Below, one piece after another: positions 52,805 to 62,917 of a stretch of 64,000 nt of DNA; within the stretch, counting starts at the first letter, position 1; each line of letters starts with the position of its first letter. The translations under genes were made by a program, and so were the position numbers. The DNA comes from a bacterium (lineage in GTDB: Bacteria; Zixibacteria; MSB-5A5; GN15; FEB-12): assembly GCA_043811375.1 (NCBI GenBank), contig JBDRNJ010000006.1, forward strand, positions 54,296-118,295. Direction: 5' to 3'. The notes beneath the pieces are model-generated. The model saw nothing but the letters and a program-made list of their open reading frames with translations, ran no database searches and was not told where the DNA came from.

Positions 52805-54406
52805 TCAGTTACCGACTCCCTTTGGCAGGCTGGATAACTGCTGGTAGGTGAATGGGAGCGTCTTGTGTGCAAAGACCCAGTATGAGCGGTCATAATACCA
52901 ATCGTACCTGGTTTTCCCTATGAGACGGTACTGGTCTATGAACCTTGGGTCAGCTACCAAGACCTTGTGTTTCGTGTAGAAATTCGGTTCCGCCAAAGAA
53001 AACGACACAAGCACGACAATTCCTGGCCGTCGTGAAAAGAAGTACTCCTCTGACCAACCCTGTTTTACAATATGAATGTCCGTCAGTGACTTCGGATTGA
53101 TATCTACCGTGGCCAGCTTGGAGTAATAGGGAGTTGCTCCTACGTCACTGATAGCCAATAGCGTCTCGGCCGGAACGTTGTCTCTCAGCCACTCTCCTAA
53201 TGCAACCAGTGATTCCTGAGTACTGGTTTCATTTCTGATTGCATCGAATCTCAATAACGCTACAAACGAAAGATTGAGAACTACGAATGCAGTGCATAGT
53301 GCCAAATGCGGGAGTTCTCTTTTGTATGACATGGACAGTGCGCGTGGGAGGAGCGCTCGCAGCACAGGAAGCCCTGCAATTAAGAGCAGCGGAATGAGCG
53401 GAACGAAGTACCGCATGCCAGGCATCCAGTCTACGAAATTTACATAGAGGGACGCATATATTACCAGGAGAGCGAAGATAGTGTTTTCAAATAGCGGACG
53501 GTTATTTTTGGAGGAACACGGAATTAAGACCCCGATTAGAGCAACTACACCAAGCGCAATGTAGTAATAGCCGAGAGGTGCAAAATAGCGATTCTGGATC
53601 AGGAAGAAAAACTGGATATTGATATTCCACGCGTGCAACAGTGACTGGCCATCGCCACCCTTTGATAAGAGAGGTGTTGGAAAAATCTCCCCGAAATACA
53701 TGAGCCTCCAAGATTGATAAACAAGCACCAGCAAGGCGAAAAGTCCGAGACCTGCCAGCATCCACCTCATACGAGAATATGAGTGGTAGCCATTCATAGG
53801 TTTCAAGTAACGTGCAAGAATGAGATAGCCCACGACAGCTGGATAAAGCAGAAGGCCCTCTGGTCTACATAAGGTAAGAAGTGTGCATACTACGGCCAAA
53901 GATATCGACCAGACAGGACGTCCGTCGTGAATGATGCGATCGACACACAAGGTGGCTATTAGTATGAGAAGTGAAAAGAGAGGGGTCTCCATTCCAGAAA
54001 TCGAATACAGAACGAAGGGTCCGGAGGATGAAAGCAGAAGCATTACCAACATTTGCTGACCGGCAGAAAGTCGGGGGCGTATGATGAGCCAGAACACGAG
54101 TAGGTTCAGTATTCCAAAAAACAGGCCAAGATGCGGAACGAAAGAGGGTAAATCCAAGCCAAGTCGCACAGCGAGAGAGCAGAGCAGAATCCAAAGGAAG
54201 TTCGTATACCCCTCAACGGGAGTCTCTCCGGCATTGAATGTAAGCCCATTGCCGAGTGCAAGATTCTCGGCGTACCTGAACGAGATGTATGAGTCGTCCG
54301 GCAGGAACGGGGTAAGCTGTAAGGCAAGATACGTAAAAATCAGAACGCTGATAACGAGCACCAGGCGAGAAATGAGGGCCTTGTTACCGGACGGGGTGAA
54401 ATCCAT
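52805..54406 (-). CDS. Polytopic membrane protein, GT-C glycosyltransferase-like
   Basis: DDSYISFRYAEN..G.GLTFN..VEGYTNFLW, SGMETPL, RPEG motifs; many TM helices. Confidence 0.75.
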   Translation of the reverse strand: MDFTPSGNKALISRLVLVISVLIFTYLALQLTPFLPDDSYISFRYAENLALGNGLTFNAGETPVEGYTNFLWILLCSLAVRLGLDLPSFVPHLGLFFGILNLLVFWLIIRPRLSAGQQMLVMLLLSSSGPFVLYSISGMETPLFSLLILIATLCVDRIIHDGRPVWSISLAVVCTLLTLCRPEGLLLYPAVVGYLILARYLKPMNGYHSYSRMRWMLAGLGLFALLVLVYQSWRLMYFGEIFPTPLLSKGGDGQSLLHAWNINIQFFFLIQNRYFAPLGYYYIALGVVALIGVLIPCSSKNNRPLFENTIFALLVIYASLYVNFVDWMPGMRYFVPLIPLLLIAGLPVLRALLPRALSMSYKRELPHLALCTAFVVLNLSFVALLRFDAIRNETSTQESLVALGEWLRDNVPAETLLAISDVGATPYYSKLATVDINPKSLTDIHIVKQGWSEEYFFSRRPGIVVLVSFSLAEPNFYTKHKVLVADPRFIDQYRLIGKTRYDWYYDRSYWVFAHKTLPFTYQQLSSLPKGVGN

Positions 54407-54598
54407 CTTTCTCCTCAATTTCGAGCATCCAACTTGCAAAGTAATATAGTAGTGTACAAAACTATTTTATACATAAATAGCCAACCGGATAATCAAGCCT
54501 TTTCCGGAGGTGCTTGATATGTTAGTATTGGTTGACTGATTCATCTGAAACTGGCGTGGGTGAGTGGATCACCGGCGCTTGTCAAACTGGAGTATAAA

Positions 54599-55018
54599 AT
54601 GTTGACCGCTAAAATGAAGTGGGCCGGGGGGCTGAAATTCGAAGGCACCAGTGCCTTTGGCCACCTGATTATCACTGACGGAGCTAAAAAAGTCGGTGGA
54701 GAAGAAGCCGGTTACAAACCGACCGAGTTGCTGCTGTATAGTATCGCCGGTTGCACCGGGATTGATGTCGTCCGTATTCTCGAGAAACAACGTCAGAAAC
54801 TGACCTCTCTTGAGATTGAGTTGATTGCCCACCAGGGCGAGTCTTACCCGAAACCATTTCACACTATCGAGGTCAAGTTCATCGCTCGCGGGAAAGAGCT
54901 TGACGAGAAAAAGTTGGCGGCAGCTATCGAGTTGTCCGAGAGCAAGTATTGCGTGATCAGCCAGACTATCGAGAGCGAGACCAAAGTAGTCACCAGTTAT
55001 GAAATTGTACCGGAATAG
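54599..55018 (+). CDS. OsmC/YhfA family protein
   Basis: GYKPTELLL..IAGCTGIDVV..LEKQR, SESKYCVIS (two conserved Cys). Confidence 0.9.
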   Translation: MLTAKMKWAGGLKFEGTSAFGHLIITDGAKKVGGEEAGYKPTELLLYSIAGCTGIDVVRILEKQRQKLTSLEIELIAHQGESYPKPFHTIEVKFIARGKELDEKKLAAAIELSESKYCVISQTIESETKVVTSYEIVPE

Positions 55019-55071
55019 CGCGAACTTTTTGGTGCTCGGTCCGGTTCTATGTCTCAAAGGAGTATAATGAG

Positions 55072-55473
55072 ATGGAAGTGAACCAAAGAGAGAAGCTGGC
55101 CTGCCGGCGGGAGTCGCAACTGCCGTTTGATACGGTCGTAAATAATCTGCAGGAGCAGTCGGCTGCCAATCAGTTCCGGGTACTGGCGGTGCATAATGTA
55201 CAAAAGACGCTGGCCGAGAAGGGACTGGAAAGAGAACCCCTGACAATCATCGAGGTTTGTAATGCCGGGTTTGCTCACCAGGCACTGCAGCAGGCAATTG
55301 AAGTTTCCCTGTTTATGCCCTGCAAGTTTTCAGTATATACTGAAGGTAAGAAGACGGTCGTCCTGCTGGCACGCCCCGGCATGATTTCAGCTATGCTGCC
55401 GGATGCCGAGCTGGAGAAACTGGCCGGGGAGGTCGAAGACAGGCTGAAGAAGGTTATGGAAGCTGCAATCTGA
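55072..55473 (+). CDS. DUF302 domain protein
   Basis: FRVLAVHNVQKTLAEKG, IIEVCN, LFMPCK. Confidence 0.88.
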   Translation: MEVNQREKLACRRESQLPFDTVVNNLQEQSAANQFRVLAVHNVQKTLAEKGLEREPLTIIEVCNAGFAHQALQQAIEVSLFMPCKFSVYTEGKKTVVLLARPGMISAMLPDAELEKLAGEVEDRLKKVMEAAI

Positions 55474-55495
55474 CGGCAGTGTGAGCAGCCCGATT

Positions 55496-55666
55496 ATGAA
55501 GAAGAAAACAATATTATTCGTCGCTGTAGGCGGTTTGCTTGGTTTCGGCCTGTCTTTTTTGTATAATTCCTTCGGGTCGACCTGACAGCTCATGTGTAAT
55601 CCCTACCTGACAACGGTGGTAGGGGCGCTGGCCGGTGCGGTCATGTCGGGTGGAAAACGAGGTTGA
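55496..55666 (+). CDS. Putative selenoprotein, DUF6132-like two-TM peptide (UGA at 55583-55585 read as Sec)
   Basis: MKKKTILFVAVGGLLGFGLSFLYNSFGST-U-QLMCNPYLTTVVGALAGAVMSGGKRG; frame stays open past the UGA and ends 4 nt before the next ATG; SECIS-like hairpin 55601-55624. Confidence 0.7.
55601..55624 (+). promoter_or_regulatory. Candidate bacterial SECIS element 1
   Basis: CCCTACC/GGTAGGG stem; loop starts UG, 22 nt after the UGA. Confidence 0.5.
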
Positions 55667-55670
55667 CGGA

Positions 55671-55868
55671 ATGCCGATCTACGAATACAAGTGTATGGAT
55701 TGTACCAACGAGTTTGAAGAACTTGTTGGTGTGGGAGATTCTGCGCCGCCCTGCCCCTCCTGCCGGTCCGGCAATACCGTCAAGATGATCTCGTTGATTT
55801 CCGCAAGGGGTATTACCTCCGGCTGTTCCACCTGTGTGCCTTCCAATTGCTCAAGCAAACACACGTGA
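55671..55868 (+). CDS. FmdB-family zinc ribbon protein (may extend to 55874 as ...KHT-Sec-Gly)
   Basis: MPIYEYKCMDC..FEELV...CPSCRS, Cys-rich tail; stop context TGA GGT TGA. Confidence 0.88.
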   Translation: MPIYEYKCMDCTNEFEELVGVGDSAPPCPSCRSGNTVKMISLISARGITSGCSTCVPSNCSSKHT

Positions 55869-55883
55869 GGTTGACCTGATTCC

Positions 55884-55897
55884 CCTGCGGTCGCAGG
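55884..55897 (+). promoter_or_regulatory. Candidate bacterial SECIS element 2
   Basis: CCTGC-GGTC-GCAGG hairpin, loop 20 nt after the UGA at 55866. Confidence 0.5.
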
Positions 55898-55954
55898 CAA
55901 CAAGTTGCTTTTATCAACACAGTGTAATTTTCAGTTAGCACAGTATGAGTCCCT

Positions 55955-56102
55955 GTAGGTTGGTGTTCCCAGGGAGGTGGCGAAGCCACTTTCACTGACC
56001 GCGAAACCCGACCATAGCTTGACATGACCCCACCCCACCAAGGAGATGTCGGGTTTCTCATTCGTCCGTCTGACGCCGGACTCACTCGGAACGCCGACCT
56101 AC
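55955..56102. repeat. REPIN-like inverted doublet
   Basis: GTAGGTTGGTGTTCC...GGAACGCCGACCTAC outer arms; GAAACCCGAC/GTCGGGTTTC inner arms. Confidence 0.65.
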
Positions 56103-56146
56103 TGGACTACAATGTCTTGATTGGCAAAACCGCTTCGGGTTTTGTC

Positions 56147-57118
56147 TTACTCGTGCTGTTCCAGCGCTTTGAGAATCATATCACGCGGCGCCATGCCCTT
56201 GCGGTAGACCTCAGAGTAAACCTTCAGATGCCACTTGTCGTTCATCCGGGGGAGATCATACTCCAACTCGTCGGTACCCAAAATCAGCTTATTTAAGAAC
56301 ATGGCCATTGTCTCATAGGCGGCATACAGTTTGCGATGCTCATATCTGCCGCCGGCAGCGAGATCAAAGTAAATGTCAATCAACAGATGGGTGCCGATTT
56401 CGTGCGAAAGAAACTGGCAGGTCTTTTCCAACGGCTTGTCGTAGTAGAACAGGTTGCTGCTGTAACTGATTGAATTGTAGTCCGGGCCGTTTTTGTTGGC
56501 GTAACATAGCAGGATCTCGTATTGGTCGGCTGCAAAGGGGATACCCAGTAGATGCTCCCATTTCGCGACATAGTCCAGTTTCTGAAAGTAATCCTTTAAC
56601 TCGGCCGCGCGACGGGCCAGCGCCGGTTGAACCCGGGGCCAGACCTGCTGATGGTAGCTGTCAAAATTATCCACGCAGACCCGGCTTAGTCGCCGCGACT
56701 TTTCAATCAGGTCAGACTCGGCCGGAGTAAACTTCGCGCTTTTGAGATAGTGGGCAAAAAATCGATCCGACCAGTCAGCTTCCGGGTACGCTTCTACGAA
56801 TGGTGTCAGATTGCCCTGCTGTAGTGCCGTCTGAACGATTTCGAAGTATGACTTTAGATCAGGTTCGTTCTCAAAGCCCAACCACGCCGGCAGGGTAGTG
56901 AAAACCCCCGACAGGTCGCCGCCCTCACCCTCACCGAAGGCCAGCAGAGCTTTATTGTCCTCAAGGCAGGCCAGGTCCTCCGGATTGACGGTGTGCCGAA
57001 AGTTGTCGGCATACTCCGAGTCGTACCCGATTCTGGCGACTGCCATCAGGTGCCAGAGGTAATTGGGTTCGAGCTTGCCGGTGATAATGACCGGTTTGGG
57101 CCATGGTGCCATGTTCAT
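56147..57118 (-). CDS. Hypothetical protein (HE motif, possible metalloprotease-like fold)
   Basis: Long ORF with SD AGGAGG; contains FLSHEIGTH and a downstream YE. Confidence 0.65.
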   Translation of the reverse strand: MNMAPWPKPVIITGKLEPNYLWHLMAVARIGYDSEYADNFRHTVNPEDLACLEDNKALLAFGEGEGGDLSGVFTTLPAWLGFENEPDLKSYFEIVQTALQQGNLTPFVEAYPEADWSDRFFAHYLKSAKFTPAESDLIEKSRRLSRVCVDNFDSYHQQVWPRVQPALARRAAELKDYFQKLDYVAKWEHLLGIPFAADQYEILLCYANKNGPDYNSISYSSNLFYYDKPLEKTCQFLSHEIGTHLLIDIYFDLAAGGRYEHRKLYAAYETMAMFLNKLILGTDELEYDLPRMNDKWHLKVYSEVYRKGMAPRDMILKALEQHE

Positions 57119-59869: not shown

Positions 59870-61306
59870 ATGGACGAGAGACAAAAAGAAATCAGAAAAC
59901 CGGCCGTGGCCGGGACGTTCTATCCGGCCGATCCCGTCAAGTTGAGCAAAGCTATCGCGGAGATGTTTGCCCGTTGCGACAAGCCGGCTCTCACCGGCAG
60001 GCCGCTGGCGCTGATTGTGCCTCATGCCGGTTATATCTATTCGGGGTTAACGGCCGCCAAAGCCTACAAGCTGTTGCAGGGGGAGCAGTATGACACGGTG
60101 GTGGTGGTCTCGCCCTCGCATACCGTGTTTTTCAAGGGTGCGTCGGTCTACACCGGGGATGGTTATGAAACACCGCTGGGGACAGTGGAGACGGACCGGT
60201 TCCTGGCTGAGCGGATTGCTTCTATCAATCCGTCTGTTTATGCATCCAAGATGGGCCATGCCGTAGGGGCCGCCCGAGGCGAACATGCTCTGGAAGTGCA
60301 GTTGCCTTTTTTACAGGTGGTATTGGGTCGATTCCGACTGGTCGCAATAGTGATGGGCGATCAGGAAGAAGACACCATCCGGTCGCTGGGGGAAACACTG
60401 GCGGCGGCGTTGAGGGATACCAATACCCTGATGGTAGCCTCCACCGATCTGTCGCACTTCCACACTGAGCAGGAAGCGCGCCGTCTGGATGAAGCAGTGT
60501 GTCAGGCAGTGGAGAAATGTGATCCGGACCTGCTGTTGCGCACTCTGGACTCCGGCAAAGGAGAGGCGTGCGGTGGCGGACCGATGGCGGCCGTGATGAT
60601 GGCTGCCGGACGGCTTGGCAAAACCAGCGTACAATCGGTGCAATACACGACCTCCGGCGAAAGCACCGGCGATTTCAACGAAGTGGTGGGATATCTTTCG
60701 GCTGCGATTGTTACCGAAAAAACGTCATCCCGGCCGGACTCAACGGTCGGTTCTCCCCGAGCTCTCCCGGAATCCGATACTATCTCGGCTGAAGACCGAC
60801 AGAAGTTGTTCGATATCGCCCGCGCTGCCATCCATGCCCGGTTGCGGGACAAAGACTACACTCCCCCCGAAATAGCCGGCCTGTCGGCTCTGTCAGGCGC
60901 CTTTGTGACGCTTAAGATCCATGGCCAACTGCGTGGTTGCATAGGTCAGATACGCAGCCATCAACCACTGTATCGTACCATAGCCGAGATGGCGGTAGCG
61001 GCGGCATTCGAGGACCCCCGTTTCCCGACCCTGTCGGCGGATGAGTTCGAGAGGCTGGAGTATGAAATCTCGGTGCTGTCGCCGCTGCGACGAGTGACCA
61101 ATTTTACGACCATTAGCATTGGGCGGGATGGCCTGATGATCAAACTGGATTTCCATTCGGGTTTGCTGCTGCCGCAGGTAGCCACTGAAAACGGCTGGGA
61201 TGTGACGGAGTTCCTGGAGCAGACCTGCCTGAAAGCGGGTCTGCCGAAAAACAGCTACAAAAGCAGGGACGCCGAGGTCTACAAGTTCTCAGCGGAGGTT
61301 TTCTGA
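59870..61306 (+). CDS. AmmeMemoRadiSam protein B (Memo) fused to protein A (AMMECR1)
   Basis: RKPAVAGTFYP, PHAGYIYSG, EHALEVQLPFL, STDLSH; then GAFVTL, LRGCIG, DPRF, GLLLPQVA. Confidence 0.93.
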   Translation: MDERQKEIRKPAVAGTFYPADPVKLSKAIAEMFARCDKPALTGRPLALIVPHAGYIYSGLTAAKAYKLLQGEQYDTVVVVSPSHTVFFKGASVYTGDGYETPLGTVETDRFLAERIASINPSVYASKMGHAVGAARGEHALEVQLPFLQVVLGRFRLVAIVMGDQEEDTIRSLGETLAAALRDTNTLMVASTDLSHFHTEQEARRLDEAVCQAVEKCDPDLLLRTLDSGKGEACGGGPMAAVMMAAGRLGKTSVQSVQYTTSGESTGDFNEVVGYLSAAIVTEKTSSRPDSTVGSPRALPESDTISAEDRQKLFDIARAAIHARLRDKDYTPPEIAGLSALSGAFVTLKIHGQLRGCIGQIRSHQPLYRTIAEMAVAAAFEDPRFPTLSADEFERLEYEISVLSPLRRVTNFTTISIGRDGLMIKLDFHSGLLLPQVATENGWDVTEFLEQTCLKAGLPKNSYKSRDAEVYKFSAEVF

Positions 61307-61408: not shown

Positions 61409-61482
61409 GCCCCCGTAGCTCATCCGGATAGAGCATCTGCCTTCTAAGCAGAGGGTAGCAGGTTCGAGTCCTGCCGGGGGTA
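61409..61482 (+). tRNA. tRNA-Arg(UCU)
   Basis: GCCCCCGTAGCTCATCCGGATAGAGCATCTGCCTTCTAAGCAGAGGGTAGCAGGTTCGAGTCCTGCCGGGGGTA, anticodon TCT, CCA not encoded. Confidence 0.95.
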
Positions 61483-61528
61483 CTCTCTCGACATTTTGAC
61501 CCCTTCGGCGATCAAGTCGAAGGGTTTT

Positions 61529-62917
61529 CTAATATGTGGGATAAAGGGTTAGGCCGTCAATCGTGCAGTTCGAAAGTAGGCAGTTTAATAGTCGGCGCTT
61601 TTCCGGACCGCATTGTGTAACGTAAAGGGAATGCGCATGTTGGGCAAGTTCGAGAATTTTCGAACCCTGGTCGACGTAATCACGGTCGGCGTGCTCGAGT
61701 CGTGACAATTGGTCTTGCACCTGATTCTGTTCCGTCCTCCACCGTGATGACAAATCACTCCAGAAACCGTCGTCAATGACCCCGTCCAGTCTGTCCTCAT
61801 ACGCTTTGTCCAGCTTGGCCTGAAGGTGGTCAAGCTTGCGTCTCAACTTCTTGGTCTCAGACTCCCGGAACACTTTCTCGTCATCGTAGCTGCCTCTGAG
61901 GGCTTGCACAATCCATTCAGCAACCTCACTATCGATCTCAATTGCTTTGACCAACTGAGCCAGCTTGCTGTCGAGCGATTCTTCCCTGATATATGGCTGA
62001 TTACATTTACCGCGGCCACCAGTGCAGTGGTAGTAGACATACTTGCCCTTCTTGATCTCCGCTGTGATTTGACATCCGCACCGTCGACACCGGAGCAAAC
62101 CGGTAAATGCGAAGTGTCGCTTCTGTAATCCCTGCTTCCCATCTTTGTGTAGCGCCTGCTGCACACTGAAAAACAACTCCTGCGTAATGATTGATTCGTG
62201 GTTGCCGGAGTACTGGATTCCCTTCCATATGAAGTCGCCGTAATAAAACGGGTTTTTCAGGATGGACTCGACCATTCCCTTCGACAGTTTCTTACCCGTC
62301 CTGCTACGCAGGCCCATTTCATAAATGGTATCTCTGAGTTGGGCCAGAGAGTATTCATTAGTCGCGTATAACGTGAACATCTTGTGAATGTAGAGAGCCT
62401 TATCTGGGTCGATGTCAACCAGACGCGTTGTCTGGTTGTTTAGATAACCAAGCGGTGCCTGATGTGGCCAGTTGCCTTGACGGGCTTTCTCGCGCAGCCC
62501 TTTCGCGACCTCTTCAGACAGATTGTCAATGAAGTTCTTTGCCAGTACAACCTTGAGGCCATGAACGAGTTTGGCGTGAGAGTGGCTATTCTTACTGATA
62601 GTCTCGTTTTCTTTTACCAAGTGGATTTCAACATCAAGGTCTTCCAGAAGTAGATAGTCACGGAAGTTCCGATATAGCCGGTCGGTTTTCTCAACCAGGA
62701 TTATCCTGACTTCTCGGTTGGTCTTGAGATACTCTACCATCTTGCCAAACTCAGACCGACCGGCCACTTTCGCAGTCTCCACATCAGTGAACTCTTGGAC
62801 GATGTCTATTTCGTGCTTGGAAGCATATTCACGGAGCAGCTTCTGTTGGGCGGGAATAGAAAAGCCTTCCTTCTCCTGCTCCTTCGATGAGACACGAGCG
62901 TATAGAACGGCCTTCAT
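61529..62917 (-). CDS. Large serine recombinase (integrase)
   Basis: YARVSS catalytic motif, EKTDRLYRN, APLGY, NPFYYG, zinc ribbon CRRCG..YYHC..C, coiled coil. Confidence 0.93.
   Translation of the reverse strand: MKAVLYARVSSKEQEKEGFSIPAQQKLLREYASKHEIDIVQEFTDVETAKVAGRSEFGKMVEYLKTNREVRIILVEKTDRLYRNFRDYLLLEDLDVEIHLVKENETISKNSHSHAKLVHGLKVVLAKNFIDNLSEEVAKGLREKARQGNWPHQAPLGYLNNQTTRLVDIDPDKALYIHKMFTLYATNEYSLAQLRDTIYEMGLRSRTGKKLSKGMVESILKNPFYYGDFIWKGIQYSGNHESIITQELFFSVQQALHKDGKQGLQKRHFAFTGLLRCRRCGCQITAEIKKGKYVYYHCTGGRGKCNQPYIREESLDSKLAQLVKAIEIDSEVAEWIVQALRGSYDDEKVFRESETKKLRRKLDHLQAKLDKAYEDRLDGVIDDGFWSDLSSRWRTEQNQVQDQLSRLEHADRDYVDQGSKILELAQHAHSLYVTQCGPEKRRLLNCLLSNCTIDGLTLYPTY

Follow-up and report, generated by a model that had tools for sequence, protein, structure and literature searches.

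Introduction

The Uxx-star selenoproteins (NF041212, NF041211 and NF041114) carry selenocysteine (Sec) one to four residues from the C-terminus, and their selenocysteine insertion sequence (SECIS) lies in the 3' untranslated region (UTR). We predict both features for an FmdB-family zinc ribbon, the last product of a cluster of four small genes, the third of which encodes a DUF6132-related membrane peptide with a predicted Sec of its own. The cluster lies in a stretch of 64,000 nucleotides (nt), hereafter the window, from a bacterium of the GTDB lineage Zixibacteria; MSB-5A5; GN15; FEB-12 (GenBank assembly GCA_043811375.1, contig JBDRNJ010000006.1, positions 54,296 to 118,295 of the forward strand); unless a locus label is given, coordinates are those of the window. 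The Uxx-star member of this genome shares the GGUC loop and its spacing (+21) with the zinc ribbon gene. However, Uxx-star proteins have a glutaredoxin fold, whereas the protein described here is a zinc ribbon, and none of the Uxx-star models was among 25 of the 26 families that matched 20 zinc ribbons. Predicted selenoproteins of the same family, TIGR02605, are described from Global Ocean Sampling (GOS) data, where the consulted parts of the reports give two sequences with Sec in a CxxU or UxxU motif (PMC2398784; UxxU in PMC13188914). In the window protein, by contrast, the four ribbon Cys are intact and Sec stands in a C-terminal tail without CxxU.

The other products also have described relatives. 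DUF6132 proteins (PF19628) are, like the window peptide, two-helix membrane peptides with the same Gly pattern and the loop register C-P-I-T-S-N-P; unlike them, the window peptide has Sec for the invariant Cys, lacks the first Cys of GCxxGxC, and has a new Cys that creates U-x3-C. The first gene product resembles the YhfA subgroup of Ohr/OsmC proteins (PDB 1ML8) in sequence, fold family and its two Cys, but it is placed with DUF302 and two selenoproteins, although it is itself no selenoprotein. At the level of the locus, clusters homologous to ours occur elsewhere with rhodanese genes and x-C-x-C repressors, as in CstR-regulated persulfide operons as far as the consulted part of that report describes them (10.1101/2021.07.25.453692), whereas the window operon lacks both, and the genome yielded no CsoR-family gene. 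The SAO locus is likewise conserved and consists of small selenoproteins that annotation cuts short, and its SaoC has a terminal Sec and a GGU-loop hairpin (10.1101/2022.07.06.499078, in the part consulted); no families shared with that part were found, and the window has no ABC transporter or MerB-like gene.

In the consulted part of a 2026 catalogue of 119 selenoprotein families (PMC13188914), FmdB appears only as UxxU and DUF6132 is absent, so that neither Sec form of the window is listed. NCBIfam (June 2026) showed no selenoprotein model for the two proteins, nor among 25 of the 26 families for 20 zinc ribbons. Among the papers listed in a literature search, no title or abstract opening dealt with a C-terminal Sec tail of FmdB, and for DUF6132 one unrelated paper came up; Haft and Tolstoy 2025 lay outside this comparison and could contain one of the forms. 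Recoding of this kind is standard, and each of the four protein families was known before; the new element is a neighbourhood of selenoprotein genes of which two members are unlisted. It adds a Sec form of DUF6132 with Cys controls, a conserved link to the genes for YhfA and DUF302, and neighbourhood evidence on function.

Results

A four-gene cluster with two in-frame UGA codons

An earlier note, made from the letters of the window, had described four small, tightly spaced, co-oriented genes with Cys or Cys/UGA motifs, the last two with an in-frame UGA and a hairpin at SECIS distance. We found the four open reading frames (ORFs) on the + strand at 54599-55874 with gaps of 53, 22 and 4 nt (Table 1), and both UGA codons with their hairpins, of which the one in the membrane gene has no GGUC tetraloop and no conserved loop sequence and is less canonical than the other. 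Family matches above cut-off at the locus were OsmC (PF02566), DUF302 (PF03625), Zn_ribbon_8 (PF09723) and TIGR02605. The machinery that recoding needs, which the note had named as a point to check, is present: the genome encodes selA, selB and selD, all above cut-off, and tRNA-Sec (selC), and its selD gene has one TGA within. SelB would bind the hairpin close behind each UGA, as in standard bacterial recoding.

Table 1. Coordinates of the cluster and of related features
Feature	Position	Strand	Product	Remarks
YhfA-type OsmC-family gene	54599-55018	+	139 aa	PF02566, E 5e-19; no Sec
DUF302 gene	55072-55473	+	133 aa	PF03625, E 8.5e-17
DUF6132-related two-helix membrane peptide gene	55496-55666	+	56 aa	predicted Sec30, U-x3-C loop
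In-frame UGA of membrane peptide gene	55583-55585	+		predicted Sec30 (GST-U-QLMCNP)
Predicted SECIS within membrane peptide gene	55601-55624	+		CCCUACC / 10-nt loop / GGUAGGG, 7-bp stem
FmdB-family zinc ribbon gene	55671-55874	+	67 aa	TIGR02605; predicted Sec66-Gly67 end
In-frame UGA of zinc ribbon gene	55866-55868	+		predicted Sec66 (HT-U-G-stop)
True stop TGA of zinc ribbon gene	55872-55874	+		second stop mixed among relatives
Predicted SECIS in 3' UTR of zinc ribbon gene	55884-55897	+		CCTGC-GGTC-GCAGG, 5-bp stem, GGUC loop
Second-phylum membrane ORFs with in-frame TGA	L211:1800-2099, L214:1103-1402, L212:639-980, L215:1774-2169, L213:1191-1316, L224:1233-1307			

The UGA of the zinc ribbon gene and its hairpin

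The zinc ribbon matched TIGR02605 with 52.1 bits (cut-off, 31.3). It contains two CxxC motifs, whose Cys (C8, C11, C28 and C31) are invariant, all four remaining Cys, and a tail of Ser, Gly and Cys in which C52, C55 and C60 are followed by U66, with K63 three residues before it. We analyzed the end of the gene in 76 genomes with a complete copy, leaving out genes cut by contig ends. The first stop was TGA in 76/76, compared with 639 of 1445 long ORFs (44%) of this genome, and a second stop followed one to four codons behind it, again in 76/76, where 81/639 was expected. This second stop was TGA in 35 genomes, TAA in 27 and TAG in 14. The residue behind the UGA was Gly or Ala in 70/76, and Phe stood two positions before it in 67/76. 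We also considered the second UGA of the window gene (55872) as a Sec codon and ruled it out, the matching codon being TAA or TAG in 41/76 relatives.

The loop of the window hairpin lies 20 nt beyond the UGA. The best hairpin had its loop start 15-24 nt past the UGA in 71 of the 76 genomes and reached -5 kcal/mol or lower in 67, compared with 18% of shuffled sequences. A GGTC loop within this range occurred in 51 genomes, carried by 30 distinct stem arms; the five stem positions each paired in 43-47 of these 51, as against 35-51% in slid controls, and at stem positions 2-5 all four Watson-Crick pair types were present. A U-tract was found behind only 9 of the 76 hairpins, which therefore are not terminators. 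A terminator scan called no site at 55884-55897, and an Rfam scan of 54000-56500 yielded no family (best E-value, 0.4).

The Sec-tailed zinc ribbon is widespread: at least three phyla have it. Of 80 FmdB loci sampled from metagenomes, 79 were complete. A second stop stood close behind 17 of the 46 genes that end in TGA and behind 5 of the 33 with another stop; in 16 of the former 17, and thus in 16/79 complete genes, the Sec-tail pattern was recognised by eye. In a second phylum, that of a Calditrichia record, 61 genomes gave 24 matches, and all 21 strong ones had a U-tail. The U-tail occurred there in 20/50 selA-positive but in 0/10 selA-negative genomes (one-sided p 0.011, which incomplete assemblies may inflate). 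Of five named genomes, the two with selA had the U-tail, the two in which selA was undetected had a Cys-rich tail, and one had no member.

The genome also encodes another FmdB-type zinc ribbon, which belongs to a different subfamily, ends with TAG and has no Sec tail (G000:C9 95544, + strand). Just 5' of the U-tailed zinc ribbons of the second phylum we noticed another short ORF for a membrane protein; it has an in-frame TGA and encodes a hydrophobic stretch, then U and C-[SP]-V (Table 1). The four of these ORFs that were scanned had no meaningful NCBIfam match; they are candidates for a third selenoprotein.

The UGA of the membrane peptide gene

The membrane peptide of the window matched no family above cut-off, and DUF6132 (PF19628) not at all; of 20 close relatives, two gave weak PF19628 matches (best E 0.005). 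Profile comparison (HHalign) with Cys-type DUF6132 nevertheless gave 99.4% probability and E 5e-22 over 60 columns, with U placed on the invariant Cys, and Cys-type relatives in other phyla exceeded the DUF6132 cut-off in nine loci. By its sequence the peptide is a relative of DUF6132, homologous over the full profile, rather than a member, its score being below the gathering score. A profile of the membrane peptide matched 103/201 genomes of the phylum of this bacterium, with TGA in 76, no stop in 24, and only another stop in 3.

For the codon test, 74 genomes were entered and 72 classified, one further genome with the motif deleted being left out. The codon at the invariant Cys of the family was TGA in 50 genomes, Cys in 21 and AGA in 1. 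We compared the RNA structure behind this codon with that of synonymous recodings. In the window, the SECIS region had a z of -2.5; across the genomes, the 39 nt behind the codon had a mean z of -1.68 in TGA genes and -0.12 in Cys genes, so that only TGA genes had excess structure downstream (p 4.5e-6, from non-independent genomes). Because 79/80 genomes of the phylum have selA, those with the Cys form included, the switch between TGA and Cys was not forced by loss of the machinery. Alternation of Cys and UGA among relatives, which the earlier note had proposed to look for, occurs at the membrane peptide; for the zinc ribbon, no exact Cys counterpart was seen.

A structure model of the peptide is a helical hairpin with helices at 3-25 and 36-51, joined by a loop that contains U30 and C34 (predicted local distance difference test score, 69); Foldseek found nothing similar (two matches, E above 4). 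Lys and Arg together averaged 3.25 in the segment ahead of helix 1, 1.3 in that behind helix 2 and 0.15 in the loop between them. Positively charged ends are cytoplasmic by the positive-inside rule, and the Sec loop is therefore predicted to face outward.

The membrane gene appeared to decay in two genomes (L068/L083 in G202; L120 in G008): one has AGA for TGA but retains the hairpin (z -4), and the other has lost the motif by deletion. In four planctomycete loci (L038, L040, L048 and L051) DUF6132 was fused to thioredoxin and stood beside ArsP/HMA permeases, with a peroxiredoxin domain as well in L051.

Probable recoding of the two UGA codons

The genome offers internal controls for recoding. 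Its Uxx-star protein (C24), which belongs to a curated selenoprotein family (112 bits; cut-off, 66), ends with U-G-F-stop and has a GGTC loop at +21. A thioredoxin-like protein with TPR (G000:C57; L235:344-1204, - strand) contains SPT-U-RWC, a UxxC motif, and has a GGTC hairpin at +23, although no curated selenoprotein model matched it above cut-off. Hairpins with a G(G)T loop lay behind only 132 of the 11900 TGA-ended ORFs of this genome. Because such hairpins are rare, and because TGA, short tail and hairpin are kept jointly in relatives, the pattern at the locus goes beyond chance; the related genomes are not independent, and the counts overstate significance, though the pattern covers many families. 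From these sequence patterns, we hold with high confidence that UGA is recoded to Sec at this locus; the UGA of the zinc ribbon is almost certainly read as Sec, and that of the membrane peptide very probably.

On the opposite view, each UGA simply ends translation, the hairpin behind it is a terminator and the membrane gene is a pseudogene. Several observations would agree with this. The zinc ribbon domain is already complete ahead of its UGA, and we saw no homologue in which Cys exactly replaces U in the F-[ST]-x-G end; other FmdB proteins do have Cys-rich tails (e.g. CxxCx4CxxC), yet the F-[ST]-U-G end has no residue-by-residue match among them. The membrane hairpin lacks GGUC, z was above -1 in 15/50 TGA membrane genes, and AGA in one relative and the lost motif in another also fit plain stops. 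However, plain stops do not account for a TGA that never varies and is followed by a conserved small residue and, shortly after, by a stop; for hairpins that rarely precede a U-tract and that keep their loop sequence although the stem arms co-vary; or for a membrane frame that is conserved through the second helix and has Cys in other lineages. The same hairpin also stands behind the curated selenoprotein of this genome. We therefore consider an absence of recoding very improbable.

The claim that standard gene callers miss these proteins was borne out. The zinc ribbon is stored as a protein of 65 aa cut at the UGA, the 29-aa UGA-ended form of the window membrane peptide is absent from the protein collection, and relatives of the peptide are cut at or near the motif: of 26 database matches, five end at or right before the Sec position and two have Trp there. 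In databases, Sec-tailed zinc ribbons and Sec membrane peptides are thus truncated or missing. A further frame of this genome (G000:C51 near 3534, - strand) stays open for 268 codons beyond KGS-TGA-GCT and has a hairpin at +20; we take it to resemble a UGC-type selenoprotein.

The OsmC-family and DUF302 proteins

The best PDB match of the OsmC-family protein was 1ML8, E. coli YhfA (E 5e-24), and its best NCBIfam match was PRK10738 (100.8 bits, below the cut-off of 138). The OsmC peroxidase model TIGR03562 gave 16.8 bits (cut-off, 85.8) and the OsmC-like selenoprotein model NF041052 gave 24 bits (cut-off, 95). Cys52 and Cys118 were invariant in 58/58 loci. The DUF302 protein matched PDB entries 1Q9U and 1J3M, and its Cys63 (EVCNA) and Cys84 (MPC) were invariant in 57/57 loci and in 22/22 aligned proteins. 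According to the consulted part of PMC8945050, the YhfA subgroup lacks the catalytic Arg and Glu of Ohr/OsmC peroxidases and is biochemically uncharacterised; by analogy, both residues are probably absent from the window protein.

Conservation of the gene order

We surveyed the gene order in 85 genomes of the same phylum, a biased sample because genomes were picked by matches to DUF302 or the membrane peptide, with flanks of 1.5-3 kb. The complete chain osmC-DUF302-membrane-zinc ribbon was found in 46/85. The remaining genomes had membrane-zinc (19), osmC-DUF302 (7), DUF302-membrane-zinc (5), osmC-membrane-zinc (4), osmC-DUF302-zinc (2) or DUF302 alone (2). The membrane and zinc ribbon genes were adjacent in 74/85, and the conserved core is this pair rather than all four genes. 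Conservation of the neighbourhood, which the earlier note had anticipated for all four genes, is therefore real for the full order in about half of the sample and general only for the core. At least 26/85 genomes lack osmC in the chain, some of them because of contig ends or short flanks.

Outside the phylum, three loci (L037, L050 and L223) have DUF6132, DUF302 and zinc ribbon genes together with rhodanese and thioredoxin, one of them also with OsmC. Among the 16 U-tailed metagenome loci, six adjoin genes for OsmC, DUF302, sulfurtransferase, thioredoxin or a CsoR-family repressor. Two of three such neighbouring repressors lack the copper-sensor His, as judged by motif spacing, and x-C-x-C is a persulfide-sensor motif according to the consulted part of 10.1101/2021.07.25.453692, which fits these two. 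DUF302 has been found within sox clusters (PMC5037610, in the part consulted). In this genome, two rhodanese domains are encoded outside the operon, and next to a DsrP gene lies one whose product resembles CoA-disulfide reductase and has a rhodanese domain at its C-terminus (G000:C39; L238:1560-3257 and 91-1443).

Possible function of the cluster

Because homologues adjoin rhodanese, thioredoxin and CstR-like repressors, our best guess, by analogy and held tentatively, is that the locus encodes a thiol/selenol relay for sulfane sulfur (persulfide or polysulfide). The membrane hairpin would expose its Sec30/Cys34 loop outside as the first nucleophile for incoming sulfane sulfur or a disulfide. 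The zinc ribbon would be cytoplasmic, with Sec on a flexible Ser/Gly-rich tail that could act as a swinging arm to take up and pass on sulfur or electrons, and the two-Cys proteins YhfA and DUF302 might be its soluble partners. Reductant could come from thioredoxin-type enzymes or from CoA-disulfide-reductase-rhodanese enzymes encoded elsewhere. From the sequences, we infer that both relay and transfer across the membrane may take place. A further version, undescribed so far and in our view doubtful, is a minimal selenol relay in which an outward-Sec hairpin of 56 aa and a Sec-tipped zinc-ribbon shuttle would carry sulfane sulfur, selenium or electrons between the envelope and cytoplasmic YhfA and DUF302. 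If true, it would place four orphan families, YhfA, DUF302, DUF6132 and FmdB, in one pathway across several phyla.

Several results weigh against a sulfane-sulfur relay. The operon contains no rhodanese, CstR or persulfide enzyme, and neither a CsoR/CstR-family (PF02583) gene nor YeeE was found in this genome, which is 95% complete. In 19/85 genomes the chain has neither osmC nor DUF302, and 10 of the 16 U-tailed metagenome loci have unrelated or unrecognised neighbours. The gene most often found beside the zinc ribbon in the second phylum encodes a CoA-binding protein (13/20 loci) rather than a sulfurtransferase. The third neighbouring repressor carries a His of the copper type, and the consulted part of 10.1101/2021.07.25.453692 cautions that the four-residue motif is of limited use. 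In five planctomycete loci DUF6132 genes adjoin ArsP/HMA permeases, which favours metals. A shared operator upstream of the cluster was not seen in 58 regions, whose top 7-mers came mostly from the end of the upstream gene. The predicted topology, moreover, puts the membrane Sec on the face opposite the soluble proteins, and a two-helix peptide offers no obvious path across the membrane.

The cluster might instead serve a general disulfide or electron relay with no specific sulfur substrate. The membrane peptide would then be a minimal redox connection across the membrane, and the soluble proteins would maintain thiols of the cytoplasm or the envelope in reduced form. The DUF6132-thioredoxin fusions in four planctomycete loci, thioredoxin-like genes flanking the cluster in L033, L050, L097, L159 and L223, and a DUF255 thioredoxin-domain gene that precedes osmC in at least 22/58 loci would all fit; but in this genome the DUF255 gene sits on another contig, and the recurring rhodanese and x-C-x-C repressor neighbours would be left unexplained, which makes a general relay rather unlikely. 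Binding or trafficking of a metal or metalloid (Cu, As, Hg or Fe-S), with Sec as a ligand and C52/C55/C60/U66 as a second metal site, draws on the planctomycete permeases and the copper-type repressor, on the Cys-rich tails frequent in FmdB proteins without Sec, to which three Cys and U would correspond, and on the ligand roles suggested for the Sec of UXX-star proteins in the consulted part of PMC13188914. Most U-tails of relatives, however, have one or two tail Cys only, and no efflux pump or metal chaperone was found beside the pair among 18 ORFs scanned from loci of the phylum; a metal role is unlikely. Peroxide defence, with YhfA as a peroxidase recycled by the selenoproteins, had been among the functions offered by the earlier note. 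It could call on the OsmC fold with both Cys invariant and on peroxiredoxin, rubrerythrin and desulfoferrodoxin genes near planctomycete DUF6132 genes, yet the OsmC protein is YhfA-type, a subgroup reported without the catalytic residues, and its gene is often missing from the chain, even if contig ends and short flanks explain some cases. This proposal is weakened and, because the OsmC is YhfA-type, the least supported of the three; we consider it improbable.

Whatever the substrate of the putative sulfane-sulfur relay, evolution places Sec at reactive sites, and the UGA codons therefore mark a functional residue in two families of no known function. The cluster is a testable link among the uncharacterised YhfA, DUF302, DUF6132 and FmdB proteins; the proteins are tiny, and natural UGA/Cys pairs can serve as ready controls.

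Boundaries of the cluster and neighbouring features

The upstream neighbour, a glycosyltransferase-like gene, is divergent and the downstream gene is convergent, and the four-gene unit is therefore bounded on both sides. A contig from an RNA library spans 55725-55916 without mismatch; it verifies the sequence at the second UGA and the hairpin but is not evidence of transcription. The sequencing runs compared had small word shares throughout, and a plasmid search gave no match.

Directly 3' of the operon lies a palindromic element of about 160 nt (55947-56108; -79 kcal/mol over 190 nt) that had no Rfam match. Nine further BLAST matches were found on eight contigs of the genome, one of them right behind tRNA-Ala, and the element is possibly a repetitive extragenic palindrome, a repeat like a miniature inverted-repeat transposable element, or a structured RNA. 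A large serine recombinase gene (61529-62917, - strand) stands just past a tRNA-Arg at about 61409-61483, and the two probably form the edge of an integrated element. The gene at 59870-61306 (+ strand) encodes AmmeMemoRadiSam B and A fused in one protein.

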